Assembly: GCA_963734545.1 (NCBI GenBank)
Contig: CAVTHO010000010.1
Coordinates: 153,060-217,059, forward strand
DNA length: 64,000 bases
Direction of reading: 5' to 3'
DNA from: an uncultured Spirochaetota bacterium
Lineage (GTDB): Bacteria; Spirochaetota; Spirochaetia; SZUA-6; Fen-1364
Shown: positions 29,501-55,080 of the stretch, in pieces
Layout: each line of letters opens with the position of its first letter
How positions within the stretch are numbered: position 1 is the first letter of the stretch
The notes under the pieces: generated by a model
Told to the model about the DNA's origin: nothing
Databases searched by the model: none
The model's input: the letters and a program-made list of their open reading frames with translations, nothing else
Position numbers and translations under genes: made by a program

Positions 29501-32500
29501 GCAACTTTGGCCTCCAAACGCGCTACCGTGGTGTCCAATGTGACGTCGCCCCCCGCAAGGACGACCAGCGCATCAGAGGTCACCGCGGCCATCACAGCTC
29601 CACCAGCGGCCAGGGTGACATCTCCAGGATTGCCGGCAAGAATGCTCGCTGCCGCAATATCCCCGCGGGCAGTCACCGTGATCGAACCATCCGCCGTGGT
29701 CACGTTCGACAGGATGATCGAATCGGTTTCATCGATAATGATGTCCCCCACGCCGCTGGTCGCGGCCGTAAGAGTATTGACTGTGGTCATCAGCGTGATC
29801 GGACCGGCCGCGCTGACAACCAGCTCGTCCGCAACGACGGCTGCAGCAACAGCACCACCGGCGGTAATCTCGACTGAGCCGTTGAAGGCCACAGCCTCCA
29901 TCACAATCGCATCACTCTCGCTGACCACGATGTCCCCGGCCGGGGCATGGGCAACCAGCACATCCACATCGGTGATGAGGGTCATTCCCAAATAGGCCCC
30001 CACCTGCAGCCTCTGCGCCGAGATCACGGAGCCCGGCAGCGAACCAACCGTGCTGCCCTGCAGGGAAACTTCCCGCGCCGATACCGTCCCCACCACAGTG
30101 AGGTTTCCCGCACTGACTGACAACCTGCCGTCTGCCACCAGGATGCCAGCCAACGTCAGATCATCGGATTCGCCGACCGCGACATCCCCGCTTCCCTCAG
30201 TGCTGAGCATCAAGGAGGCGACATCCGTGATCAGCGTGATCGCGTCTGTCTCGACAACGGTAAGCTCTCCATGGTTGGTCGCAGTAAGGGTATCCACACT
30301 GGTATCCAGAACCATCGAGCCACCGGCTGTCGCAATCAGCTCATGCGCCGCTATCTTGCCGACGCCATCGGTAATCGCGCCCGCGGAGGTAATGGTGATC
30401 CGGTCCTCCGCTGCCTCCACGCTGCCGACCTCAATATCTCCTGACCCGATGGTCGTGAGGCTGATGTTCTGCCCGATTCCCCCCGCGGTCACCGTCCCGA
30501 CCCTCAGCGCTGCCCCGCTCACATCGATCAAGATGTCCCCGTCCGCGGTCTGCGCAAGCGCAACTGCCAGGGGCCCGCCACCAGCCTGGCTGAACAGGAT
30601 GTCCCCCGCTCCCGTCGTCAAGGAGGTCACGCTCACCGGCGAAGTCAACGTATTGTCCAGATCGATCACGCCGTCGGTCGTATCCGCAGCGATCAGCGAA
30701 GCTGCCGTCTCGATGGCCCCTTCCGTCCCGATCCCCCATCCCGCGTCAATATCCAGGGCGTACGCAGTGATGTCCATGTCAGGATCCGACCCGTACTCCT
30801 CTACTGAACCCGCTGCCATCAGTGTCACGCTGCCAGAGCCACCGGCGACGATTCTCCCCACCGTAATGTCTCCGGCACCCGCGGTCACGCTGATCGAACC
30901 ATTCGCCGTGGTCACGTTCGACAGGATGATCGAATCGGTCTCGGTTATCGGTTATGATCGCGTCTGTCTCGACAACGGTAAGCTCTCCATGGTTGGTCGC
31001 AGTAAGGGTATCCACACTGGTATCCAGAACCATCGAGCCACCGGCTGTCGCAATCAGCTCATGCGCCGCTATCTTGCCGACGCCATCGGTAATCGCGCCC
31101 GCGGAGGTAATGGTGATCCGGTCCTCCGCTGCCTCCACGCTGCCGACCTCAATATCTCCTGACCCGATGGTCGTGAGGCTGATGTTCTGCCCGATTCCCC
31201 CCGCGGTCACCGTCCCGACCCTCAGCGCTGCCCCGCTCACATCGATCAAGATGTCCCCGTCCGCGGTCTGCGCAAGCGCAACTGCCAGGGGCCCGCCACC
31301 AGCCTGGCTGAACAGGATGTCCCCCGCTCCCGTCGTCAAGGAGGTCACGCTCACCGGCGAAGTCAACGTATTGTCCAGATCAATCACGCCGTCGGTCGTA
31401 TCCGCAGCGATCAGCGAAGCTGCCGTCTCGATGGCCCCTTCCGTCCCGATCCCCCATCCCGCGTCAATATCCAGGGCGTACGCAGTGATGTCCATGTCAG
31501 GATCCGACCCGTACTCCTCCACTGAACCCGCTGCCATCAGTGTCACGCTGCCAGAGCCACCGGCGACGATTCTCCCCACCGTAATGTCTCCGGCACCCGC
31601 GGTCACGCTGATCGAACCATTCGCCGTGGTCACGTTCGACAGGATGATCGAATCGGTCTCGGTTATGGTTATGTCTCCCACGCCGCTGGTCGCGGCCGTA
31701 AGAGTATTGACTGTGGTCATCAGCGTGATCGGACCGGCCGCGCTGATGACTACCTCGTCCGCGACGATAGTGGTTCCGCTGCCGGTTCCACTGTAGTGCA
31801 GGTTTGATATGCCATAGTAGTCAGCCAGAGTATCCGATCCGAAGTTTTCTTCAAACCTGTAGATATCGTTATGGTAAAGACCTAGTAACAGGTCATTTCC
31901 GCTTCCACCTGTAATCGTATCTATTCCGGGAGAGCCCAGGAGTTGATCATCTCCAGGACCGCCATCGAGAGTATTGGTTTCAGAGATCAGTGTATTTGGA
32001 GAAGCTCTCCCATAGCTTTCATCGAGCAGATCGTTTCCTGACTCACCATAGAGATGATCGTTGCCCGTTCCACCGAGCAATTTGTCATCACCATTCCCGC
32101 CGTAGAGATAATCATTTCCTTCATTCGCGAAGATGGTATCGTTGCCATCTCCGCCTTGTATGGAATCATTCCCCTTTCCAGTTACGATGACGTCATTGCC
32201 GCCGTAACCATACACCTCCATGTTAATGGCGACGCTGTTCCCATCCGCAACAATTGTTTCTGCGGCATTCGTCCCATAGATAATGATCCTCGAGATCGTG
32301 CCTGCCGCAAAATACCGCATGTTTGAAATAGCGACATCTCTATAGAGATACTCTATGCTCTGGATAGACCAGTCACTCCATCCCAGAGGAATAAAGCCCC
32401 ATTTCCACCTGAAGTACCTCGTGTAATTCACCTTTTCAGCGACGAGAACGCTGCGAGTAACATCCGGCGCATCTACAATCAGATTTCCATCAACAACGGC

Positions 32501-35500
32501 TATCCGCAGTCTAGAAGCGCTCGAATTGTTGATTGTCAGTGTTCTCTGATTTGCCGGACCTGATAGACTTGCCGAATATGAATAGTAATCGAACGGGTTG
32601 ATGAGGCTCGTCAAATCATAGACTTCCGTTTTGCTGGACTCGAACCAGCTTGATATCTCATCTACGAGATCTCCTATCAGATTGCCGATATCAGTAAACA
32701 AGCCATCAAAGAAATCCACGACATCTGATCCAAAATCAAGTATCGCTTCTCCCAAATCCACGAAAGCGTCAGCTACCGCTTCTGCAGCTACGACCAGCGC
32801 CTCACCCGCAGCCTCCGCGGCAGCCCCGATTGCATCGAAAATGGCATCAAAGACACCCAGTCCTCCGTCAATGTCCCAAGAGTTTCCATTTCCGGTTACT
32901 TCGAGCCATACTCCCAGAGGCCCTTCAGCTCTGATCCTGAACGTACCAGCCTGCCAGTCCACACTGAGCGCGGCTGAAGCGATATTGATATCTTCTCCCA
33001 GGATAACAAGCGCTACTGAACCATGACCGGATACTCCGGTGTTTTTGATTGCGACACCAAGACTGCCTCTGATTCCGAACTCAGTGATCCCACTGCCAAT
33101 TGTCAGATCAAGAGCCAGCTCTCCTGCCAGGCTGAAGGAACCATTGCTGTAGATGTACCCTGAAATGCCAATGTCAACGATGCCGAAAAAGTCTATTGAG
33201 ATGTTGTTGAACGCAATTCCCAGAATACCGCCCTGAGCGCCCAGTACCAGGTCTCCTGATGTGTGAAAGAGCCCGAAGAGATCTATGGTGGCGCCTATTG
33301 CGACAAGGTATGTGTGGGGCTCAATCGTCCTGCTGCCGATCGTGACCTGTTCACTGCCCGTGTTTATTTTCAGAGTGAAATTGCCGCTGATATTTATTCC
33401 CGGTATGCCGTCAAAGACATGCACGCCAAGATCGGCGTACATGGCGAAGACGCCGTCCTTGATGACCGCGCCGCCTGTCACATCGAGTTTTCCGAAGATG
33501 CTCAGATCCACTTTGCCTGCCAGCGCGAGATACAGTCCTTCACCGCTGATCTTGAGCTGGAAGTCAGCGGTGATCACGAATACGCTGGCAATGGTCAGAT
33601 CGCCGTGCAGAGAAACAAGGAAATAGGCTCCCGGTGATTCAAAGGTCCCATCCAGCCGGGGTGCACTGCCGCGGATCGTGAAAGCCGCCGAACCATCAGG
33701 GTTCACGACAAACCGTGCATCCAGCGTCCCTGTCAGCCCGCTGAGCGCGGTGGTGTTCGCGATACCCAGCCTGTTGAGCTCTGATTCTATGAACGAGCCC
33801 GACAGATCGACCGTCCCTTTCAGGAATGCGACATAACGCTGCGGTATGGTGATTGTCTGATCGACACCGGTGGTGTTGAACACAATCCGCGCCCTGGCAT
33901 TGAAAGCCAGGACGCTGCTCAGCGCACCACCGACGGAGACCGAAACATCTATGTCAGCCGCGATGCCGCTGGCGTTGATCACCAACCCGCCCAGGGCATT
34001 CATGTCAAACAGCTTGGCCCCGCCGGAAGCCCCGATATCAGGCCCGAACTCAAGCCCTGCTGCAACAAACGCTTTGAGTCCGGCACTGTCGACCTCAAGC
34101 AGCAGCAGGCCGTTGAGTCTTACAACTGCATTCGAAGACGGATCTGATTTCGGGCCATCGTATATTGTGACCTGGCCGCCGAGCTGGAAGCTGATCAGGA
34201 ACTGGTCGAACACCAGGACCGCCGGTGAAGTCGGGTCTCCGGTATTGACCTTGAAGCCCACATCCAGCGTGCCGCTGCGGTCCGCGTCAGCGGCCTCGGC
34301 GAGGGTGTCATTCGACAAGAACGCCTTGACTTCGTCGACCTGGAGCAGACCGTCCTCGTTCGTATCCAGTGCGCTCGCGACATTCGCCCAGCTGACTTGC
34401 ACCGCGTCTGCGTCCGTGCTCGTGTAGAGGTCGGCATAAGCGCCGCCGGGTCCCTGTCCGGCCAGCATGCGCAGCTCTCCGACCGTGATGGTTCCGTCGT
34501 CATTGGTGTCAAACAGGTCCAGGACCTCGTTGAAGCTGGCAGGGAAGTCCACCACGGAGACGCCACTGGCCGTGCCGATGCCCACGTTGATCGCGATATC
34601 GAAGCGGCCAGTCGCCTCGAGCATGTCGATGCCGACCACGCCAAAGCTGTCGACACTGGCCTTTGCGGCCAGGTACACGCCGACATCAGAAAGACTCACG
34701 GACGCCATGACCATGAGGCCCACATCCAGGTCCGTGATATGGAAACCGACGGCGCTCGAGCTCAGCTCATTGGTGTCGACCGAATGGTCGCCGTCCGTAT
34801 CGGTCCAATAGGGGCCGTTCGCGCCGATGAATGCCGTCACATTGGCGGCGCCGATCGTCATGGTCGTGACGGTTTTCGTGCTGCCGTCGGTGAGCGTCAC
34901 CTGCTGCGTCGGACCCAGCTCGAAGGCAATGCTTCCGGTGAGATAAAGCGCGTCGAAGATCTTGAGCTCGACGAATCCCTGGGCGCGGATGAGGGAGGTG
35001 CCCATGGCCAGGTACACCGGCTCACCGCCGGTCTGCACCTCCAGGCCCAGCGGATCTATCTTGCCGTCTCCGTCAGCGTCCGCGGCAGCGGCTGCGGACG
35101 CGCCCATCAGCGCGGCCGCCTCGCCCACCTCCAGAGTCCCGCTGGCATCCGTGTCCAGCGCCTGGGCGATCAGCTCCGTGTCCAGCACCTTGTCGGCCGA
35201 ATCCCCGGCTCCGTACAACCCGGAGAAGGCGTTCTGGCCGCTGGCGGCGCGAAGCTCACCGACCGTGACCAGCCCGTCGTCGTTCGTATCGAACAGCGGC
35301 AGCCGTTCGTCCGCGAACGCGGGCGTCGTTGCAAAATCCACCACGGGGAACAGCGACACACCGTAGATCGTGGGCGAAGACTGGTTGACTTCCACGAGGA
35401 TCTGCTCCGCCTGGACGGTGACGCCGTCGATCCCCGCGAGACTGATCGACCGGGCGCTTGCATGCAGCGCGAAGTACTTTCCCGGATCCAGGGGATTGCT

Positions 35501-38500
35501 GGGACTCATCATCGCCATGCCGAAATCAAGGTCGTCCAGCACGAGCCCCACGGCTTCCGGGTTCACTTCAGCGGGAACGATCTTTCCAGTGACCGGGTCG
35601 CGGTCGATCTCGCCGTCCCCGTCGGCATCCACCCAGTACGGTCCGTTGATGCCCACGAAGGCGTGTACGTCCGCCGCGCCTATGGTCATGAAGCCCACTT
35701 CCTTGACCGTGTCGAGAACGGGAATCGGTGTATCGGCAGGCAATCCGTAGTCGTTCAAGAGCTTGCCGACGTCGGCCGTCACCTGTCCCAGGAGCCCTCC
35801 GGCGGTGTTGACCGTGGCTCCCGGTCCTTTCTCGAAGGCGACGCTTCCAGTGATGTACACGAACTCCGATATCCGGATGGTGGCTTGTGCGACACTTGCC
35901 CCGATGCGCTCGTTGCCGTCAAAATCGATGTACACAGGCGGGGTGTCGACTCCGGTGCGGATTTCCAGGCCCGGCGGGTCCAGCTTGCCGTCGCCGTCCA
36001 CGTCCGCTCCCGACGCCGCGGTGGCTCCTGCCAGCGCTGCCGCTTCGGACACTTCCAGCGTCCCGCTGGCGTCAGTGTCCAGCACGTCCAGGAGCGTGCT
36101 CAGCGCCACGACCTGGCCGTTGTTCGCCGCCGAATTGTACAGCCCGTTGTAGCTCTGGGCGCCGTTCAGCCCACGCAGCTCCCCGACCGTGACCAGCCCG
36201 TCGTGCCCCGGTCCCGTATCGAACAGGAGCAGCCGCTCGTCGGTCGCAAAGCTGTTGGCGAAGTTGATCACCGGCGCGCCGAAAACGCCGCCCGGCCATT
36301 CTTTTCCCGTGTTTACTCCCACCCGGATGCCTTCCAGTGTCATTTCGACAGCGGGAAGTCCCACGAAGCCCACCAGATCGGCAGACGCCTTCAAGGCGTA
36401 GAACTTGGGAAGGACCGAGTCCAGGCCCGGCAGGGCCGCCAGCGTAGGCGCCATCATGACGAAGCCGAAGTCCGCGTTGTTTACGACCAGCCCTATCGCG
36501 TCCTGGTTCACCCCGGTTTCGTCGGACACCAGCCCGTCGCCGTCCGTGTCGATCTTGTACGGCCCGTTCAGGCCCACGAACACGTGGGCTCCCGAGAAGC
36601 CGATCTGCATCGAGTCCACTTCCAGGTTGTAGATCGTCGAGAAATCCGTGCTGATGCTCAGCGCGTCTTCACCCAGCCCGATAGTGCCTTTCTTCGGCAG
36701 GACATTCAGCGCGTCGAGGATGCCGCTTGCAAAGCCAGCCAGGTCACCGGGGAATCCCGTGGCCACCTCTACCCGGTACCCGGGTCCCTTCTCGAAGGAA
36801 AGGCTTCCGATCACGTACACGAACTGGGAAATCCGCAGAAGCACGCTTTGCGCCGCTGCTCCGATCCTCTGGTCTCCATTGAAGGTCAGGTAGACCGGCT
36901 CCGTCGTTGTCCCCGTCCGTATTTCGTAGCCCGCCGGGTCCAGCTTGCCGTCGCCGTCCTGGTCCGCTCCCGACGCCGCAGCTCCTGCCAGAGCCGCCGC
37001 CTCGGTCACTTCCAGCATCCCGTTGTCGTTGGTGTCCAGCACGTCCATGAGAGTGCTCAGCGCCACGACCTGGCCATCACTCGCCGTCAAAGTGTACAGC
37101 CCGCCGTAGCTCTGCATGCCGCTGACGCCGCGCAACTCCCCGACCGTGATCAGCCCGTCGTGCCCCGGTCCCGTATCGAACAGGAGCAGCCGCTCGTCTG
37201 TCGCAAAGCTGTTGGCGAAATTGATCACCGGAGATCCCAGGCCTCCCGGCCACCCGCCGGAATCGTTCACCTCCACCAGCACCTTCTCAAGGGACGCCTG
37301 CAGGATGCCTTCCAGTCCGACAAGCCCGGCGCTCGCCGCCGTGGCCTTGACCGCAAAGAACGTCGGAAGGATCTTGTCGAGCCCGGGAAGCGCCGCCAGC
37401 GGCGACACCATCGTGACGAAACCAAGATCCACGTCGTCGATCACCAGCCCCACCGCGTCCTCATTTACCGCGGTTTCGTCGGCCACCGAACCGTCGCCGT
37501 CCGTGTCGATCTTGTACGGCCCGTTCAAGCCCACAAACACGTGCGCCCCCGAGATGCCCATCTGCAGGGACCTGACCGGGAGGTTCTTGATCGTGGACAG
37601 GTCAGTGGTGATCTGCAGATCGCCCAGGCCGACTGTTCCCTCCAACGGGATGATCCCGCTGATCGAATCCAGCAGACTCTCCGCGATGTCCCCCAGGTTG
37701 GCGGGCAGCCCCGTGGCCACCTCCACCGTCTCTGCCGGCCCCATCTGGATGGAGAAGCTGCCGGTCACGTACACGAACTGGGAAATCTGCAGAAGCACGC
37801 TGTCCGCGGATGCGGCCATCCGCTGGCTGCCGTCGTAGTCCAGGTACACAGGGGCAAGACCCGTCCCCGTCCGTATCTCGTAACCACGCGGATCCAGCTT
37901 GCCGTCCCCGTCCTTGTCCGCTGCCAGCACTGCCGTGGTTCCTGCCAGCGCCGCTGCCTCGGCTGCTCCCAGCATCCCGTCGTGGTTGGCGTCCAGCGTG
38001 TTCAGGAGAGTGCCAAGCGCCACGACCTGGTTGTCGCTTGCCGCCGAATTATAGAGTCCGCCATACTCCGGCGTGCCGTTCAGCACGCGCAGTTCCCCGA
38101 CCGTGACCAGCCTGTTGTGATCCGTGTCGAACAGAAGCAGCCGTTCGTCAACGGGGAAAGAGGCCGCGAAATCGATCCGGGGCTGCCCCAAAGTACCGCC
38201 CGAGGAGGAGTTCACCTCTACCCGCACATTCCGGACGGTCGCTTGCAGCACACCTTCCAGCCCCACAAGGCCGGCGGTCATTGCGGTGGCTTTTAAGGAA
38301 TAGAACGTTGGAAGGCCCGACAGCATCTGCGGATAGAAAATCACCATCCCGAAGTCCACGTCGGTGACCTGCAGACCCACCGCGTGGGGATTGGCCTCAC
38401 TGGCGTCGAAGACCCGGTCTCCGTCCGCGTCCACCCAGTAGGGACCGTTCAGTCCCGCGAAGAGGGTTACGTTTGTCGCCGTGACCTCAAGGGGCGTCAC

Positions 38501-41500
38501 CAGCATGTTCTCAACACCGCTCGACAGGTTGACCGGGACGTAGCTGAAGGGCTTGCGAAGCGTGAAATTGCCGCCCGCGTAAACGAAGGAACCAATGGCC
38601 AGGTCCAGGTCTGCGGTCAACTCCAGGCCTGTCGAAACATCGAACTTGATCGCAACCGTCCCGGCATCCCCCAGGGAGAGGGTTTCATCCAGCGTGTATC
38701 CCTCCAACAGGGTGGAAAGGTTCTGCATGGCCAGGTCGAAGACCATTGTCGAAAGGCTTCCCACGGCGGTGCCGCCGATATCCAGGAGGGTCGGTCCCAG
38801 ACGCGCCACCAGCTCGCTTCCGAACTCGCTGATGTCGAACAACCCCAGGTCCAGGAGCTTCAGTGCGGCATCCAGGTTGCCCAGCTCCAGGCCCGTGACA
38901 ATCTGGCCGGCGTCGGGAAGGGTCCCCATTACGGCCTTGATGATCTGCTGCTGCGCACTGACGGCGTTGGCCAGGTCCGTGTGCCCCAGGCCGCCGCTCA
39001 TGGGAACCAGGAACAGCTTGCTGCCGATCCGGGAGTCGCCAAGGAACAGGCCCACGGACGAAATACTCGCGATGGTGCCGTCCCCCTCCGTGGCGCCCGG
39101 CGCGTCGGGGTTCGTGTTCGATTCCCGGTCAAGATACCAGACGGTTCCCTCATCCGGCCAGTTGCCTATGTACTGGCTGAACGGGAGTATCTCGTTCGAA
39201 AGCCCCAGGGACAGGTCCGGTCCGGTCTGGAGCACGATCTGGTCTTCGGTATCCACCTCGTTGCTGTAGATGATAGTGGCCGATCCGGTCAGCAGATCCA
39301 CGAAGCGGTTGGGGTCAGCGCCGCCGTTCAGATCGAAAAGCAGCGTGTTCTCCACACCGGCGCGTGCTGCGGTAATGCGACCCAAACCGCTGCCCAGGTC
39401 CAGGGCACCGTCATAGGTGGCCAGCAGGTCCTTCAGGGTGCCCACGTAGGCCGGGATGAACTCGACCTCGGACAGGCCGGTATCCATCCGCGAGCCGTCC
39501 GGGTTGAAGATGCCGTCCTGGAGCAGGTCGTATGCGGCGTCCAGGACTCTCCCCAGGACCCGGGAGGCCAATTTCTGGGCAAAGTCATCATGCAGGAAGT
39601 TGTAGGTCCCCGTAAGTCCCTGGTTGGGCACTCCCACCTGGACCAGGTTGTGGACTTCGGGCAGGCGGAAGGCGCCGCCAGGTCCGTAGAAATCATTGTA
39701 GGCTTCACTCTGGATATAGCTTCGGGAGACCAGACCGCCCGTGCTGTGGGTGACGATGTCCACATCGGTGAGCGCCGGGTTTCCCAGCAGGCTCCAGGCG
39801 GTCACCGCCTCGCTCAACCAGTACCCCAGGTAGTCCAGGCCGGTCTGGAAAACTCCGTCGCTAATGCCAGCGGCGCTGACTCCTTCCAGTACGCCGTCGA
39901 TGACCAGGTCGCTCGTTGCCACCGGGACCCGCCAGTCCCAGTTGGCGACGAACAGATCTACTCCCATGGTGTATCCGAGATTTTCGAAGCTGGTCACCAG
40001 GTTGCCGTAGGCATTGGTGAGCGGATCAAGCGCAAGCAGCCAGGGTTCGATACCTCGATGCTGGAGCCAATAGTCGACGCCCGCGGGGGTTTCATCCGCT
40101 GCGAAGGTGCCTCCGAACCCGGGAATGAACAGAAGCGGCCGGATCATCTGGTGCCCGGTTCCGAGGACCGTCAACGTGAGCTTGTTCGGGTCCGAATGCA
40201 GATCCACGTCGAAGAACAGCTTCCGAGTGCTTCCGTCGCTTCCGATGATCTCACCGATGGCCAGTCCGGTCATATCGGCGAAGGCCCCCTGGATGCCGCC
40301 TTCCGCCGTGAGGATGTCGAAAGAAAAGCCGGGCCGCAATCCGGTTTCGTAGCCGCCCGTGATCTGGATCTCCAGAGTGCCGCCCAGGTTCAGAACGCCG
40401 CCGGTCACATCAATGGCGTCATAGCTCACGCCCCGGTTTGACCCGCCGATTTCGATCACCGTGGTTCCTGCGACGATCAGCCGCCCGTTGACGATTCCGG
40501 TTCCGGTGATCGATTCCACGACCAGCCCTTCCGGAACGTTCAACGGTGTCTCTGGAATAAGGTGCACGCTCAAGGGCTGGTCGCCGGGACGCTGCCCGGT
40601 AATAGTGCCGGCGCCAGTGACCTGGACAACGTTGCTGACTCCGCCCGTGCCCGTGGCCGTGCCGGCCGCCAGGTCTATGCTCACGGCTGCGCGGCAGGCG
40701 GAATAGTCCAGCCTGACAAATGCGCCTCCTATGACACCTGCAATGGAGGCGCCGTCCTGGAATACGTACGTTGTGGTCCCGGCACTGCCAATCACGCTTT
40801 CCATTCCGGCAGTGGTGAGAATCGCGCTCACGCCCTGGCTGACGCTCAACGTGGCGTCAGGATGAAGGCTGATCCTGAGATCCCCGGAAACGCCTGAGAG
40901 GTCAAGGCTGTCCGCGCCATCACCCGCGTTGATGTCTACTTTGACGCTCCCGGGAGAGCCGGCAAAGCTGACCAGGTCATCACCCGCCCCGGTCAGGATG
41001 GTCAACTCTGCCAACCCGTCTGCCAGAAGGCCGCTGGCAGCTATTGTGACCGTGTCAGCCGCGGAGGCAGGGTCAGCGTCATTGGCGCCTGTATCTATGG
41101 TGACGTGGGTTACATTAAAGAAGGTGATGGATTCGAAGGCGATGCCGCCGCTTGTTCCCGATATGCGGTTCTGACCCGGCTCCGGGCTGTCAATGATGAT
41201 CTGGTCAACCCCGCCCAGATCCGATGTGGCGAACGTGTATGAATCCAGACCACTCACCAGAACCGGCTCGAGGCCGGTGAAGCTGATGGTGGTTGCCCCT
41301 GCCAGTCCGGATGCAGCAACGCTCCCGCCCTGCGCTCCCACGGCCTGGTACCTGAGAGCCAGGGAGTTGTCCCCTTTTATCACCAGACTGTCAAAACCGC
41401 CGCGGCCGCCAGAAAACCAGATGCCCCCTGCTGGCGCAAAGGGACTCCTGAAATCCACGGTAAGCTGATCATTTCCCTGGTCACTTCCTGAGATCCACAC

Positions 41501-42067
41501 TCCGGCAGGAGCGTCAGCGCGCGCGGAACCAAGAATGGCCCCGGTAGCGTCATCCAGCAGCTCCAAAGTCATGGGATCCGTGGCGCTGAGCCGCAGCGTC
41601 AGGCGGCTGTCTGCCTGCGGCGCCGAGTAATCCAGTCTGTCCGGCAGAGCGGGCGGAGGTTCAGATGCGTGAAGCGTCAATACTATCTGTTCTGTCGAAG
41701 ATGTTGCAGAGGTGCATCCGCCCGTCGGCGCAGCCGGCGTTCCATCCGGGGCGCTGGGCGTCGTGATGGCTGTCAGCGTACTGCTGGATTGCTGGGCAGC
41801 GGGAACGGCACATTCCGGTTCCGCGGCGGAAGGAGTGCTGCCCGAAGCCTGCACCGCGGATGCAAAGAGATCTGAGATATTGTCCTGCGGACTGTAGTCG
41901 AAGGTACCTTGCTCGGAAAGAGCGCTGAGAGACCCCGCCGTCTGCTGGCATACAACAGCCTCGGATTCTGCGGGCGGAGCAGGTATGGCGCAGACCACAG
42001 GGACGGGGCTTGCTGAAAGAAGAAGCCTGGGCTCAAGGGGCTCCAGTTGGTACTTTGTCACTACCAT
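26524..42067 (-). CDS. Giant LEPR-XLL exoprotein (~5180 aa if the extra base at 30949 is removed): lipase/LCAT-like domain, EF-hand-like repeats, RTX Ca-binding repeats, beta-helical repeats
   Basis: N-terminal LEPLEPRLLLSA; THSTGG hydrolase motif; GGxGxD nonapeptides; ORFs 30779-42067 and 26524-30915 join at a tandem-duplication junction. Confidence 0.85.
30237..31666. repeat. Tandem direct duplication, period 718 bp (30237-30948 and 30955-31666)
   Basis: Copies identical by eye except two substitutions (near 30664/31382 and 30802/31520). Confidence 0.92.
34250..38200 (-). repeat. 4-5 internal ~310-aa repeats with EF-hand-like DxDxDG loops
   Basis: DERL(L/P)LFDT...TVGELR...LDTxxxGxLEVxEAAALAG...DxDGDGKLDP at ~38150, 37200, 36240 and 35310; degenerate copy at ~34530. 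Confidence 0.85.
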
Positions 42068-42206: not shown

Positions 42207-43814
42207 CTAAAAGCTCATGTTTTGTTTCCAGGCTTCCAGGAAATCAGCCTTCGGATACCGGCAGAGAAAAAAAGGTATATCGTATCCCATATAAATGCTG
42301 AATGAGTTGTAGCTGCTACCGTAACTCAATACTCCCCTTTCAGCAACGTATTGGAAATAGTCCCTCATTGGGACATAGCCCATGGTCGTCGGCAACACAA
42401 TTGCCACTTCCGGGGGCCCGCTGGAGCTGAATCGCTCCTCCCCCCATATTTGATAGGCATGATGATTGCTGACCGCATCGGGAAGGCCATATTCTTCCCC
42501 GAGCACGTCGATAGCGCCCGCATCCCAATAGTTGGCAGCCCATATCACGCACTTCTTCTGATCCACTTCCCGCATGTTCTGATAAACCATGGCCACCGGC
42601 TTGACCATCTCCGGCCATCCCAACGAGAATTTGAAGTGATGCGGTATTGCCCCGGGCTGGTAGTCATTGTCTCTGACAAAAGCGGGGACGCGGTTTACCC
42701 AATAGAGCACCAGGTCGTGAATGGGCAAGATCGGCAGAGAGCCCGGGGCAAGCAACGCCGCGCCGACCACAACGATTCCCACATACGCCCACTTGAACCA
42801 GGAAATGATCTTTTGCTTCGCGGCAGCAATCAATCTTTCAAGCCAGACGGCGCCGGCCGCCATTATCGGGAAGCAGGCCGATACGATCTGCCGCGATTCC
42901 AATTTCATCAAGCCGGTGTAGAATAATGTCAGAACAAGAAAGGTGAAGCCAAGGATCCGGTATTTCCGTCCTTCCCCATGGAACAGGAGATACACCAACC
43001 CCAGCAGGAGGACCGGGGCAAGGAAAAGATTGATATGGAGGGCAAGTGAAACGAAAAACGGCCCGGGTTTCGGGTGAGGCCTGCCGGGGCTCAAAGCATA
43101 ACTATGGAAATAGGCGAGCACGGGCCAGCCATGAACAGACTGCCACACCAGGAAGGGCGTGCAGATCAACGCCGCAATGCCAAGGGCAAGCCACGGCCAG
43201 ACGGTGAGGAAGCTTTTCCGCCGTGAAGTCAAAAGCAGGGAGATCACGAGAGCCGCGCATGCATAGATCGCTGACAGCTTGGTCATGGCGCCGAGCCCGG
43301 CGACAACCCCCAGGAGAAGCCATCGTTTCGGTGTTTCCTTGTTGATGACCCGCACCACAAGGTAGAAAAGGATGATGGTGCAGAGTTGATCAAAGGGATC
43401 ATACGTGAAAACGGAGTTGAGGAACAGAATGTAGGGAGCCACCAAAACTGCCAGGGCGCTCAACCACTGGGCGAACCGGCCCCCGCCGAGCTCCCGGGCC
43501 GTCAATCCGGCCAAATAGACCATGACCGCTCCGGCGACAGCGGGCAGGATATGAATGGCAAACATCGAAGTACCGAGGAGAAATCGGTTGATGGCCGCCA
43601 GATAGGATGTCAATGGCGGAACATCCGCATAGCCGAAATCGAGATGCTTTGTCATCGCCAGCCAATAAAATTCATCTCCAAAATAGCCATAACCTATGCT
43701 GGTCAATAAATGGATCATCAGTTTTGCCAGTGCCAAATAGACAAGAATGGCGCTATCACCCTGCAAGAATTGGCGGGTCCAGAACCTGGTTTTAAGATTG
43801 TTGAAAAGATCCAT
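42207..43814 (-). CDS. GT39/ArnT-like (GT-C fold) membrane glycosyltransferase
   Basis: GYFGDEFYW, GYADVPPL, multiple TM segments, GAMTKLS, PFLVWQ. Confidence 0.88.
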   Translation of the reverse strand: MDLFNNLKTRFWTRQFLQGDSAILVYLALAKLMIHLLTSIGYGYFGDEFYWLAMTKHLDFGYADVPPLTSYLAAINRFLLGTSMFAIHILPAVAGAVMVYLAGLTARELGGGRFAQWLSALAVLVAPYILFLNSVFTYDPFDQLCTIILFYLVVRVINKETPKRWLLLGVVAGLGAMTKLSAIYACAALVISLLLTSRRKSFLTVWPWLALGIAALICTPFLVWQSVHGWPVLAYFHSYALSPGRPHPKPGPFFVSLALHINLFLAPVLLLGLVYLLFHGEGRKYRILGFTFLVLTLFYTGLMKLESRQIVSACFPIMAAGAVWLERLIAAAKQKIISWFKWAYVGIVVVGAALLAPGSLPILPIHDLVLYWVNRVPAFVRDNDYQPGAIPHHFKFSLGWPEMVKPVAMVYQNMREVDQKKCVIWAANYWDAGAIDVLGEEYGLPDAVSNHHAYQIWGEERFSSSGPPEVAIVLPTTMGYVPMRDYFQYVAERGVLSYGSSYNSFSIYMGYDIPFFLCRYPKADFLEAWKQNMSF

Positions 43815-44006
43815 GATCGCGCCACCTTTTATCAATAAATGTTTGACAGCACTCTATTGACTGGCGGTGTGCCATGTCTTTAGACAGATCGGCTATTATG
43901 TGCACTTTTCGGGCGGTCGGACGGTCACGGACCGGCGCTCCTCCCGGCTCACCGTTGATCTTTTCCCGGCAATTCGATACGCCTTTTTGGGGAGCGGAGC
44001 GCGGGA

Positions 44007-44966
44007 ATGAAGGACCTGGCGGAGTTTCTCAGGCAGGAACACCTTGGGCGCATCAACAGGGTAATCGACTACATAGATTCCCACCTCGACCGTGCTTTCA
44101 GCCTGGAGGAGCTCGCGGGCGTGGCGTGCTTCTCCCGATTTCATTTCCACAGGATTTTCTCCTACGCGGTGGGGGAAACCCTTGGGGACTATATCCGCCG
44201 TATCCGCCTGGAGCGGGCGGGAAGCTTCCTGGTGCTCCATCCCAGGGATTCCATCACCACCATTTCCATGGAGTGCGGGTTCTCCTCTCCCAGCATGTTT
44301 GCGCGGGCGTTCAAGCAGCGGTTCGGGATGAGCGCCTCCGAATGGAGGGAGGGGGGGTGGCGCAATAGCAAGCTGTGCAAAGCGCAGAGCAAGGATGAAC
44401 AAGAGGAAAGCAAGACCGGAGAAGCGGTGGACGGCCGCGTTTCGTATCCTCTGTGGCGAAAAGCCAAACCAAGGAGGATCGAAATGAGCAAGCTGAAGTA
44501 CGGGGTGGAGGTCAAGGAGATGCCGGAGCTGCACGTCGCCTACATCCGCCACATCGGGCCGTACAACCAGGTCGGAGAAGCGATGCAGCGGTTGTTCAAG
44601 TGGGCGGCACCCCGGGGCCTCTTGCACTTTCCGGAGACGCAGCCGCTTACCGTCTATCGGGACGATACGAAAACAACGGAGGCGGAGAAACTCCGCTCCG
44701 ACGCGTGCATCACTGTTCCAAAGGGCACAAAAGTGGACGGCGAGGTGGGCCTCATGACCGTCCCAGGCGGGAAGTTCGCCGTGGGACACTTTGAGATCGA
44801 CGGGACGCAGTTCGGCGACGCTTGGGACGCCCTGCTCGGGGAATGGATGCCTTCATCCGGATATCAATCCGACAGCCGTATGTGCTATGAGCTGTACCTC
44901 AACGATCCACAGGGTCCTCAGAAGAAGTTCTTCGTGGACATCTGCGAGCCGGTGAAACCCCTTTAG
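44007..44966 (+). CDS. AraC-family regulator with C-terminal GyrI-like effector domain
   Basis: LEELAGVACFSRFHFHRIF, CGFSSPSMFARAFKQRFG; C-terminal YIRHIGPY...YELYLNDP. Confidence 0.93.
   Translation: MKDLAEFLRQEHLGRINRVIDYIDSHLDRAFSLEELAGVACFSRFHFHRIFSYAVGETLGDYIRRIRLERAGSFLVLHPRDSITTISMECGFSSPSMFARAFKQRFGMSASEWREGGWRNSKLCKAQSKDEQEESKTGEAVDGRVSYPLWRKAKPRRIEMSKLKYGVEVKEMPELHVAYIRHIGPYNQVGEAMQRLFKWAAPRGLLHFPETQPLTVYRDDTKTTEAEKLRSDACITVPKGTKVDGEVGLMTVPGGKFAVGHFEIDGTQFGDAWDALLGEWMPSSGYQSDSRMCYELYLNDPQGPQKKFFVDICEPVKPL
44367..44486 (+). promoter_or_regulatory. Putative intragenic operator array, -10 box, RBS and internal start for the GyrI domain
   Basis: AGCAAG at 44367, 44388 and 44409 (21-bp period); TATCCT 44445-44450; AGGAGG 44472-44477; in-frame ATG 44484. 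Confidence 0.6.
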
Positions 44967-44993
44967 AGTCGGGCACACCCAATGCGTTGCTGC

Positions 44994-45812
44994 TCATGGT
45001 TGCGCGCAGTAGATCACCAGACTGCCGGACTCACCTGCCAGAAGCCTCCACGATTGCACGGCCGCGCCGACAGTGACGTCGCTGAGACGCAGCTGTGCCG
45101 TGTTGGGCGAGGACGTGCCTTCGTTCAGCGCCATCACTCGAAGCTCGTTGGAGCCGGAAAGCAGGTCCAGGGAAAAGACGGTGCCGGCGCCCCCTACCAG
45201 GGTATGATTGTCGATCACCTTTGCCCCGTTCAAGAACACGTCCACCCGATCGCCGTCCACGAGTGAGCCGTCATCGGTCAGGGTAATGGAGATATGCCGG
45301 GCATTGACCGTCACGTCCGCCAAACCGGAATTGTTACCAGTCCGAACGATCTGGAAAGCCGGAGAATAGCGCTCCCCGAGGATGCTCGTCTGGATGACGC
45401 CATCAACAATCGTCAACTTCGCCTGGAAATAGTCCGCGTCGTGCAGCTCGATATCCAGAGGGACGGTCCAGGTGTACGCGCCGGCATCGGCGGCGTAGTT
45501 CAGCAAAGTAGCCTCGTAGCGAGCGTTGTTGCGAAACACTTCCAGCCGCACCAGACTTCCTACCGGTGCAGGTTCCCAGGCAAAGGTCACGTCCATGTTC
45601 GGACTCAGTGGTGCGCCCGTGCCCTTACCGGCCCAGTCGACGGTGATTGCATAGGTGGTTCCCGGCGGGGCAATGGGATCGCCCCATCCGGCGACGAGCC
45701 CGTCCTGGTTTCGGGCATGAAACCGATCATGCAGCATGCAGCCCGACGCAACCGCCCCCACAACGAGGAGCAAGAACCCAAGCTTCAGCTCAATTGTCGT
45801 TCTCACTCCCAA
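44994..45812 (-). CDS. Hypothetical exported (possible lipoprotein) beta-sandwich protein
   Basis: Hydrophobic N-terminus ending ASGC; C-terminal DGDRVDVFLNG...ALNEGTSSPNTA module. Confidence 0.7.
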   Translation of the reverse strand: MGVRTTIELKLGFLLLVVGAVASGCMLHDRFHARNQDGLVAGWGDPIAPPGTTYAITVDWAGKGTGAPLSPNMDVTFAWEPAPVGSLVRLEVFRNNARYEATLLNYAADAGAYTWTVPLDIELHDADYFQAKLTIVDGVIQTSILGERYSPAFQIVRTGNNSGLADVTVNARHISITLTDDGSLVDGDRVDVFLNGAKVIDNHTLVGGAGTVFSLDLLSGSNELRVMALNEGTSSPNTAQLRLSDVTVGAAVQSWRLLAGESGSLVIYCAQP

Positions 45813-54462: not shown

Positions 54463-55080
54463 ATGAAATCTTTCCGCATGTCGCTTTACGGCAAAGCGCT
54501 CGTTTCGTGCCTGGCGCTTATCGGCCTCTGCGCCGTTTTGCAGGCGCAGGAGGTGTACAAGGCCTACGGCATTAAATCGGCCGTCATCGAATACAAGCAT
54601 TCCGGCTCGCGGACCGGCACCACCACCATGTACTTCGACAATTACGGCGCGAAGTCCGCCACGCAACAAAACTTGACAACGAGGAACAAACTGGAAAAAG
54701 GCTGGATCCTTTCCCTGGACGACACGATCTACATGTTCGACCCGGCGACAAAAAAAGGTGTGAAAATGGGCAACCCGATGGCCGCGAGCCTTAAGAAGGA
54801 AAAGGATTACGACAAGGCCGCAAAGGCAATTTACGCCAAGATGGGCTACACCGAGGCGGCGCCGGAGCAATGGCTCGGGCGGGAATGCAAGGTCTATAGT
54901 GGCAAGATGGGCAAAGTGCTCACCTGGAACGGCCTTCTCATGTACATGGAAACGAAAGTCGGAACCACCGTGTCCAAGCAGGAGGCGACCAAGGTGGACA
55001 TCAATGTACCGGTCAAAGCGAGCGTGTTCGAGTTGCCCAAGGACATCGAGTTCAGCGATATGCCGTCGTTCGGGTTTTAG
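54463..55080 (+). CDS. Hypothetical exported protein (DUF4412-like)
   Basis: Signal peptide (VLQA/QE); YGIKSAVIEY, YFDNYG, LGRECKVY, FELP. Confidence 0.7.
   Translation: MKSFRMSLYGKALVSCLALIGLCAVLQAQEVYKAYGIKSAVIEYKHSGSRTGTTTMYFDNYGAKSATQQNLTTRNKLEKGWILSLDDTIYMFDPATKKGVKMGNPMAASLKKEKDYDKAAKAIYAKMGYTEAAPEQWLGRECKVYSGKMGKVLTWNGLLMYMETKVGTTVSKQEATKVDINVPVKASVFELPKDIEFSDMPSFGF

Follow-up and report, generated by a model that had tools for sequence, protein, structure and literature searches.

Systems in which one gene supplies both a drug-sensing regulator and a smaller effector-only protein are known among MerR-type regulators. In TipAL/TipAS of Streptomyces and AlbA/AlbAS of Klebsiella oxytoca, a full-length regulator is accompanied by a short protein that sequesters the antibiotic. 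In TipA, one gene has two start codons, each giving an isoform (PMC7762955), and in the accessible parts of the reports both pairs are presented as minimal autoregulated resistance systems (PMC7762955, PMC12531866). In Shigella the AraC-family gene encoding VirF30 carries a gene-internal promoter, from which a second, shorter protein, VirF21, is made (PMC5101355, available sections). Two further AraC-family regulators carry a GyrI-like effector domain. Rob of E. coli has an N-terminal AraC domain with two helix-turn-helix (HTH) motifs plus a GyrI-like domain at its C-terminus, and STM3175/YgiV of Salmonella likewise joins an AraC DNA-binding domain to a GyrI-like ligand-binding domain. According to the available text of PMC10414762, the GyrI-like domain of STM3175 is by itself sufficient for albicidin resistance, which it provides through drug binding, resistance arises by gene amplification, autoregulation is suspected by the authors, and the DNA targets are still unknown. 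The subject of the present work is a gene of this AraC-GyrI type, located at 44007..44966 on the forward strand of a 64,000-nt stretch (hereafter the window) of an uncultured Spirochaetota genome (contig CAVTHO010000010.1, positions 153,060 to 217,059). The analysis suggests that the gene holds a second, nested expression unit, in which the DNA of the interdomain linker would double as a promoter region, activated by the gene's own full-length product and yielding a GyrI-only "sponge" protein. A circuit of this kind had been proposed in an earlier note on the same DNA, and we give this reading a probability of roughly three in four.

The open reading frame (ORF) encodes 319 amino acids and, according to the ORF list and Pfam, comprises an AraC-type HTH domain, a linker and a GyrI-like domain. 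The two-HTH DNA-binding domain covers residues 36-115 (44112..44351; PF12833, E 1.3e-20; PF00165, E 1.9e-20) and the GyrI-like domain residues 167-317 (44505..44957; PF06445, E 2.5e-33); HTH_18/HTH_AraC and the GyrI-like PF06445 are the only Pfam matches on the protein. The two-HTH domain aligns to Rob, MarA, SoxS, RamA and STM3175, the GyrI-like domain matches GyrI/SbmC (1jyh) and STM3175 (7r3w), and the closest solved relative is STM3175 (7r3w, E 1.9e-30), whose linker is short (about 10 residues) and devoid of the S-K repeats present here. Database searches returned 2419 relatives at E<=1e-20, and the linker was surveyed at the protein level in the best 120 of them, which share 53-95% identity with the query. 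For comparison at the DNA level, 113 loci were gathered from 80 named genome records of many phyla, the genomes of further relatives and 21 metagenome contigs. The 101 full-length genes among them were used, and 12 were left out as cut at contig ends, partial or too distant; a first set of 85 full-length genes served for the tests of the ribosome-binding site and the internal methionine.

The linker DNA contains three copies of a box of the form GCAAG-N6-[C/A]AA. The hexamer AGCAAG starts at 44367, 44388 and 44409, which bears out to the base the three direct repeats of exact 21-nt period reported in the earlier note. Box 1 lies at 44364..44385 (GCAAG 44368-44372, AAA half-site 44379-44381; 19.5 bits) and box 2, 21 nt further on, at 44385..44406 (GCAAG 44389-44393, CAA 44400-44402; 18.3 bits), at predicted positions of about -89 and -68, respectively. 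Box 3 occupies 44406..44427 (GCAAG 44410-44414, GAA 44421-44423; 19.9 bits), its 3' half lying over the -35 position. All three are on the forward strand. The scores come from a weight matrix built on 162 units taken from the homologues only, with the window left out. Counted from the G of GCAAG, the profile reads A at -3, GCAAG, A at +5, A/T at +6, G at +9, T/C at +10, C/A at +11 and A at +12/+13; among the 162 units, A is found at +12 in 152, at +13 in 151, A or T at +6 in 144 and G at +9 in 131, while A at +14 is retained in only 43 and T at +8 is not retained. With this matrix, the top three matches in the 64-kb window fall on the linker sites, the next best scoring 16.7 bits. This fourth-best site is located at 54902 (+).

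Across the 101 homologues, GCAAG is the most enriched 5-mer of the linkers, with 176 copies in 14,716 nt against 93 in the 80,747 nt of the rest of the genes. At least one copy is present in 83 of the linkers and at least two in 70. The 21-nt period is kept: 64 pairs of GCAAG are spaced by 21 nt and a further 18 by 42 nt. In the available text of PMC12052159 the marbox is given as gcannwwntgnnaaa. The box found here has the same half-site spacing (12 nt from G to A) and agrees with it at GCA, at W +5/+6, at G +9 and at AA +12/+13, but differs at +3/+4 (AG here), +8 and +14. Sites of Rob, as far as their description is accessible, are similarly asymmetric, about 20 bp long, composed of GCA(C) and AAA half-sites one helical turn apart, and lack a -35 consensus; the first half-site of Rob at micF is GCAC, whereas here it is GCAAG. 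On the protein side, nearly all of the 101 homologues share an identical first recognition helix, F-S-x-[FY]-H-F-H-R, with C at the [FY] position in one. An unchanging recognition helix agrees with an unchanging GCAAG and would fit binding of the boxes by the protein itself, although it does not prove it. A small paralogue group of 36-40% identity (L003, L004 and L006) has neither boxes nor the internal methionine described below. In these three related genes Asn replaces the near-invariant Arg100 of the second HTH, which may reflect co-variation of the reading head with its site.

Downstream of the array lies a putative -10 hexamer, TATCCT (44445..44450), exactly 35 nt after the G of box 3. 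The earlier note had placed TATCCT at this position behind a non-consensus -35; the position was confirmed, and a -35 consensus is indeed lacking. With a 17-nt spacer, the [C/A]AA half-site coincides with the -35 position. The 35-nt distance is kept in the homologues. Counting from the G of the final GCAAG, 34 of 84 usable genes have a TAnnnT that begins at +35, nine have it at +56 and seven at +77, with one or two degenerate extra units after the last GCAAG in the latter two classes. Taken together, TAnnnT occurs at +35 (+21n) in 50 of 84 genes, while no other offset is found in more than eight. The ten codons between the last box and the -10 vary in sequence, their number being fixed. The predicted start of the short transcript falls at 44455..44460 (+), 6-8 nt after the -10. 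The same combination is rare in the 5.1-Mb genome: of the 149 boxes of at least 12 bits, five have TAnnnT at +34 to +36, and among these five only box 3 reaches 15 bits. The best box of the genome (23.1 bits) is found outside the window, on contig C7 near 73535 (-), in the spacer between divergent TetR-like and LacI-like regulator genes, with a -10-like hexamer at +40 instead of +35; a regulon target and a chance match are both conceivable.

This geometry resembles that of class II promoters activated by MarA, SoxS and Rob, at which sites are in forward orientation over the -35, between -36 and -55 (PMC12052159, accessible part). Box 3, a forward site over the -35 position, fits this range if the TAnnnT 35 nt downstream is the -10, the start itself being a prediction. 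At the micF robbox the A site is GCAC and the B site CAAA overlaps the -35, Rob contacting -47G and -45A (PMC9178005, accessible part). With TAnnnT as -12 to -7, the G of the last box here is likewise at -47. Boxes 1 and 2 would lie on the same face of the helix as box 3, given the 21-nt period. The arrangement differs from the known MarA/SoxS/Rob promoters in that the sites are inside the regulator's own coding sequence, occur as tandems of two or three and would drive part of the same gene. Its upstream boxes point forward, in contrast to the class I marboxes of E. coli, which are reversed. For rob, no internal promoter is described in the Rob and marbox literature cited here.

The -10 is followed by a perfect Shine-Dalgarno sequence (SD), AGGAGG (44472..44477, encoding Arg-Arg), separated by a 6-nt spacer from an in-frame ATG at 44484. 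The nested frame (44484..44966, from Met160 to the stop) encodes a 160-residue product that contains the complete GyrI-like domain (Pfam, E 4e-34), in agreement with the earlier note, which had read this SD and ATG as opening the GyrI part. The internal start thus lies at the first residues of the effector domain, as in isoform-producing sensors. The methionine is kept in 98 of the 101 homologous genes. In the first set it is aligned in 81 of 85, including L058, counted by eye, the exceptions being L003, L004, L006 and L079. Among the best 120 of the 2419 protein relatives, 117 have a Met within the last 16 linker residues, preceded at -4/-3 by RR in 85, GR in 11 and WR in three. An SD, defined as a match of at least 5 nt to AGGAGGT ending 3-12 nt before the ATG, precedes the aligned ATG in 37 of 80 homologues, compared with 18 of the 509 in-frame Met codons elsewhere and 581 of 25,114 codons of all kinds, and the usual spacer is 5-7 nt. 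The GGAGG core is encoded by Arg-Arg (AGG/CGG AGG), Trp-Arg (TGG AGG), Gln-Glu, Lys-Glu, Met-Glu or Trp-Ser. The amino acids differ and the bases stay, which argues for selection on the RNA. The conservation of -10, SD, Met and 21-nt period expected in homologues under the earlier note was therefore found for all four.

By analogy, the gene would work like the TipA/AlbA two-isoform family without being a member of it. TipA and AlbA have a MerR-type N-terminus and a TipAS-type effector fold, whereas only AraC HTH and GyrI-like domains are present here, and the full-length and effector-only pair known from those systems is predicted for this gene. Their operator is upstream of the gene and, as far as the sources available describe, their isoforms come from alternative starts, whereas here the putative operator array is inside the gene. 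In the case of STM3175, the words "isoform", "truncated" and "start codon" have no match in the portion of PMC10414762 at hand. The VirF21 mRNA is leaderless, and its product, which retains the DNA-binding part, represses virF, whereas the short mRNA predicted here would have a leader of about 27 nt with an SD and encode a form lacking the HTH domain; the accessible description of VirF mentions neither an array of activator sites nor conservation across phyla.

The stretch from the -10 to the SD may act at the RNA level as well. An inverted repeat (I7) joins an anti-SD arm at 44446..44456 (+), overlapping the -10, to 44469-44479, which contains the SD, and the RNA hairpin is predicted at -27.6 kcal/mol (z -2.4), with 4 of 200 shuffled sequences folding as well. 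RNA from 44457 on is essentially unstructured (-5.8 kcal/mol), 189 of 200 shuffled sequences folding at least as well. TATCCT, read as a -10 in the earlier note, is in addition the 5' arm of this predicted hairpin, which would hide the SD in the long mRNA. Masking was compared in 37 homologues with identified -10 and SD in three RNA contexts: a long one including 40 nt before the -10, a short one starting 6 nt after it, and one with a shuffled 5' part. The mean unpaired probability of the SD was 0.25, 0.56 and 0.44, respectively. Taken singly, 28 of the 37 homologues had a long-context value more than 0.1 below the short-context one, and in 24 it was below that of the shuffled control. Of 44 SD-bearing homologues, 18 have an anti-SD word such as CCTCC in the interval 25-80 nt ahead of the ATG, compared with 4 of 54 SD-less ones (odds ratio 8.7 among non-independent relatives); these words cluster at -54 to -50, upstream of the predicted start. 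As computed, the SD tends to be masked in the long RNA and open in the short one, which points to the short transcript, and not the long one, as the source of the small protein. No Rfam family matched 43700-45200 at E<=1, and hence no known RNA family explains this region.

The same module is also found in non-coding DNA. In six loci labelled Thermotogae, Acetothermia or Atribacteria (L014, L018, L021, L028, L032 and L033), the AraC-GyrI gene has a short, box-less linker and stops, and a separate GyrI gene encoding 157-161 amino acids follows in every case. The spacers of L021, L028, L032 and L033 contain two to three boxes at the 21-nt period and TATCCT or TACCCT at +35/+36 (counted by hand on the spacer text in L021, L028 and L032). 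AGGAGG is present in the spacers of L021, L032 and L033, and the stretch of L028 ends short of its place; L014 and L018 have one or two matrix boxes that are not at the 21-nt period. The separate GyrI proteins are 58-63% identical to the GyrI domain of the window gene and 54-61% identical to that of their own upstream neighbour. In these six loci, then, sensor and small protein are two genes joined by a putative promoter, while in the window they would be nested. In L079, a gene without the internal Met, the AraC-GyrI stop codon TAG overlaps the first of two boxes, with TATCCT at +35. A more distant relative, L008, has an HTH-only frame of 134 amino acids and, some 38 nt further on, a distinct GyrI-like gene, the gap being free of boxes. 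In E. coli K-12, ygiV (L114, NC_000913, 3168749-3169231) is annotated with 160 amino acids, GyrI-only by length, directly behind ygiW, a layout that differs from the nested module. Fused and unfused layouts thus appear to alternate in enterobacteria as well (ygiV and STM3175, the latter with an AraC domain).

The signals of the module differ with the host. Phylum labels of the named records were assigned by hand, giving 30 Bacteroidota and 48 other named homologues, of which 47 have the Met. All 30 Bacteroidota genes have the Met and at least one box. At the -10 place, nnnnTTTG is present in 17 of the 30 Bacteroidota genes, compared with one of the 47 others, and the full TAnnTTTG in six of the 30. 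An SD of at least 4 nt is present in 8 of 30 Bacteroidota genes compared with 35 of 47 others. According to the accessible text of PMC7366714, TAnnTTTG at -7 is the consensus of the primary sigma factor of Bacteroidetes, whose mRNAs have no classical SD and are A-rich before the start. The putative -10 and ribosome-site signals thus follow the host type.

These observations bear on the best-surviving of the competing explanations, that the short protein is made as in TipAS only, by internal initiation on a single full-length mRNA with no internal promoter, the boxes being, for instance, an autoregulatory operator. The SD and ATG are indeed the best-conserved parts of the module, and TipA itself, with its two start codons in one gene (PMC7762955, accessible part), is a precedent. 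The tendency of the internal SD to be masked in the long RNA runs against such a mechanism, which also leaves unexplained the fixed 35-nt distance of the -10, the switch to TTTG in Bacteroidota and the recurrence of the same geometry in non-coding promoters. We consider it improbable.

Boxes of at least 13 bits were surveyed around the genes as well. Their density is 10.0 per kb in the linkers (164 boxes, all on the coding strand), 0.48 in the 400 nt upstream, 0.087 in the remaining flanks and 0.062 in coding sequence outside the linkers. In 17 loci, a single forward box is located 44-130 nt ahead of the point where the aligned coding sequence starts, and in 13 of these it is accompanied by TAnnnT at +34 to +36, mostly as a full TAnnTTTG. 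In L052 and L062, the main promoter has a TAnnTTTG-type motif (exact in L052, one base off in L062) whose end is separated from the first ATG by only 4-5 nt; the long mRNA may be leaderless there, or else its start codon is further in.

Presence of the same box in the gene's own promoter in 17 loci would also suit a repression operator, where the protein would bind its own coding DNA and block elongation, and SD and ATG would be incidental. Tandem in-phase intragenic sites could form such a roadblock. A roadblock has no role for a near-invariant Met, an SD and a -10 at +35, however, and in the six loci with unfused genes the module precedes, and would drive, a separate downstream gene. Autorepression of this kind is therefore less probable still than initiation on one full-length mRNA.

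The boxes are conserved in homologues of many phyla as nucleotides and not as amino acids. Of the 176 linker copies of GCAAG, 163 are in the frame xGC-AAG. The conservation of AGC-AAG codons anticipated in the earlier note holds in the codon-aligned homologues: in linker [S/R/G]-K dipeptides, Ser is encoded by AGC in 116 of 135 cases, compared with 436 of 1547 outside the linker (86% vs 28%), and Lys by AAG in 179 of 272, compared with 518 of 1380 (38%) outside. Similarly, Arg is CGC in 50 of 69 (564 of 1832, or 31%, outside) and Gly is GGC in 38 of 68 (39% elsewhere). Ser, Arg and Gly, which are chemically unlike, interchange at the first position of the repeat through their shared NGC codons, and the half-site 11 nt on is CAA or AAA regardless of the G+C content of the genome. 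At the protein level, the length and sequence of the linker vary among the best 120 of the 2419 relatives.

This conservation is relevant to a third explanation, that the module is a fossil, the drifting and unused remains of an old gene fusion in which an intergenic promoter came to be read through. That the unfused layout assumed by this explanation exists is shown by the six loci in which the module is followed by a separate GyrI gene. Homologues at 40-55% protein identity nevertheless keep synonymous positions, exact spacing and host-specific signals, and a dead relic is not expected to be retuned to SD-less signals of the sigma-ABfr type, which makes a fossil very unlikely. Least likely of all is that the 7-residue S-K-x-x-Q-x-x repeat is a functional protein linker and the DNA pattern its shadow: a 7-residue [S/R/G]-[K/N/T] repeat is kept in 116 of the best 120 of 2419 proteins, but the restriction of S/R/G interchange to NGC codons, with Lys as AAG and Gln as CAA whatever the genome G+C, already contradicts it in the codon counts, and the box occurs in non-coding DNA too. 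Retuning of the signals to the host would likewise not be expected of a purely protein-level feature.

The anatomy of the locus is conserved at the nucleotide level, recurs in non-coding promoters and carries signals that change with the host, a pattern far beyond chance. In the internal-promoter reading favoured here, two or three marbox/robbox-like sites would be aligned on one helix face, the last overlapping the -35 as at class II MarA/SoxS/Rob promoters, followed by the -10, a short leader with its SD, and an ATG where the GyrI-like domain begins. The full-length protein would bind the boxes through its own two-HTH domain and recruit RNA polymerase, as at Rob/MarA class II promoters, and binding of a ligand to the GyrI domain would control activation, as suggested by Rob and STM3175. 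The short mRNA would give a 160-residue GyrI-only protein with the ligand pocket of the sensor. By comparison with TipAS, AlbAS and the STM3175 domain, this product may act as a sponge or detoxifier of the inducer and thereby exert negative feedback. In the long mRNA, the internal SD would pair with the anti-SD upstream of the internal start, so that the short protein would come mainly from the short transcript.

Several points weigh against this reading. No GCAAG is present in 18 of the 101 homologue linkers, TAnnnT at +35+21n is absent from 34 of 84 homologues, and in 5 of 37 the SD is more open in the long than in the shuffled-5' context. The GCAAG core of the matrix was fixed by construction, and the homologues are mutually related, so that the counts overstate independent support. 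Genome and metagenome searches brought the DNA comparison to homologues of up to 63% identity, the relatives at 72-95% (P0001-P0005) being compared as protein only. The 5' region of the window gene itself has no box of at least 13 bits, and autoregulation of the long form is therefore not supported in this organism. A generic sigma-70 scan gave 0 promoter sites at the locus because it requires a -35 consensus, which is lacking there; for that reason the scan was rejected as evidence against a promoter, and in an activator-dependent promoter a missing -35 consensus is to be expected. One metatranscriptome run, containing 0.09 of the sampled words, yielded two 151-nt contigs (44019-44169 and 44201-44351) over the HTH part, which are uninformative on the internal start. 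The transcript start, the short protein and the binding of the boxes are accordingly stated here as predictions from sequence.

As for the origin of the module, it is possible, with odds a little short of even, that it goes back to an ancient fusion between a Rob-like regulator and the drug-binding protein it controlled, in which the target promoter was read through as a linker. Since then this stretch would have served in more than ten phyla as a linker in the protein, as a self-activated class II promoter with its operator array in the DNA, and as an SD-masking switch in the RNA, the anti-SD being part of the long mRNA and missing from the short one. A single gene and a single pocket would thus be common to sensor and sponge. 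Such a fusion would explain the origin of Rob-type sensor domains from the regulator's own target. In the surroundings of the gene, some 1.9 kb upstream and with one gene between, there is a 3762-residue ORF (30779-42067 of the window, reverse strand) in which long internal repeats abound.

A full-text literature search found no description of an operator array, promoter and ribosome-binding site inside an AraC-GyrI linker; subscription journals are mostly outside its coverage, so that an earlier report is possible. With the same limit, this agrees with the earlier note, to whose author no such description for AraC-GyrI proteins was known, and the search returned precedents only. Two-isoform MerR sensors (TipA, AlbA), an AraC-family gene with an internal promoter (VirF), Rob and STM3175 are thus known, whereas a one-gene sensor and sponge whose self-contained internal promoter also serves as coding sequence and is kept in many phyla appears to be new.

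If the reading is correct, a compact sensor-plus-sponge resistance module is present in Bacteroidota, Spirochaetota, Chloroflexota, Thermotogota-type lineages and many candidate phyla, and its DNA is under three simultaneous constraints, those of codons, of operator and promoter, and of mRNA structure. Gene callers would then miss a nested 160-residue product in thousands of genomes. The analysis would also supply a binding motif for a large uncharacterised branch of AraC-GyrI regulators. The host-specific retuning, with TAnnTTTG and SD-less leaders in Bacteroidota, constitutes a rare natural control for promoter function, and the locus offers a testable route by which one-component regulators may acquire their ligand domains.

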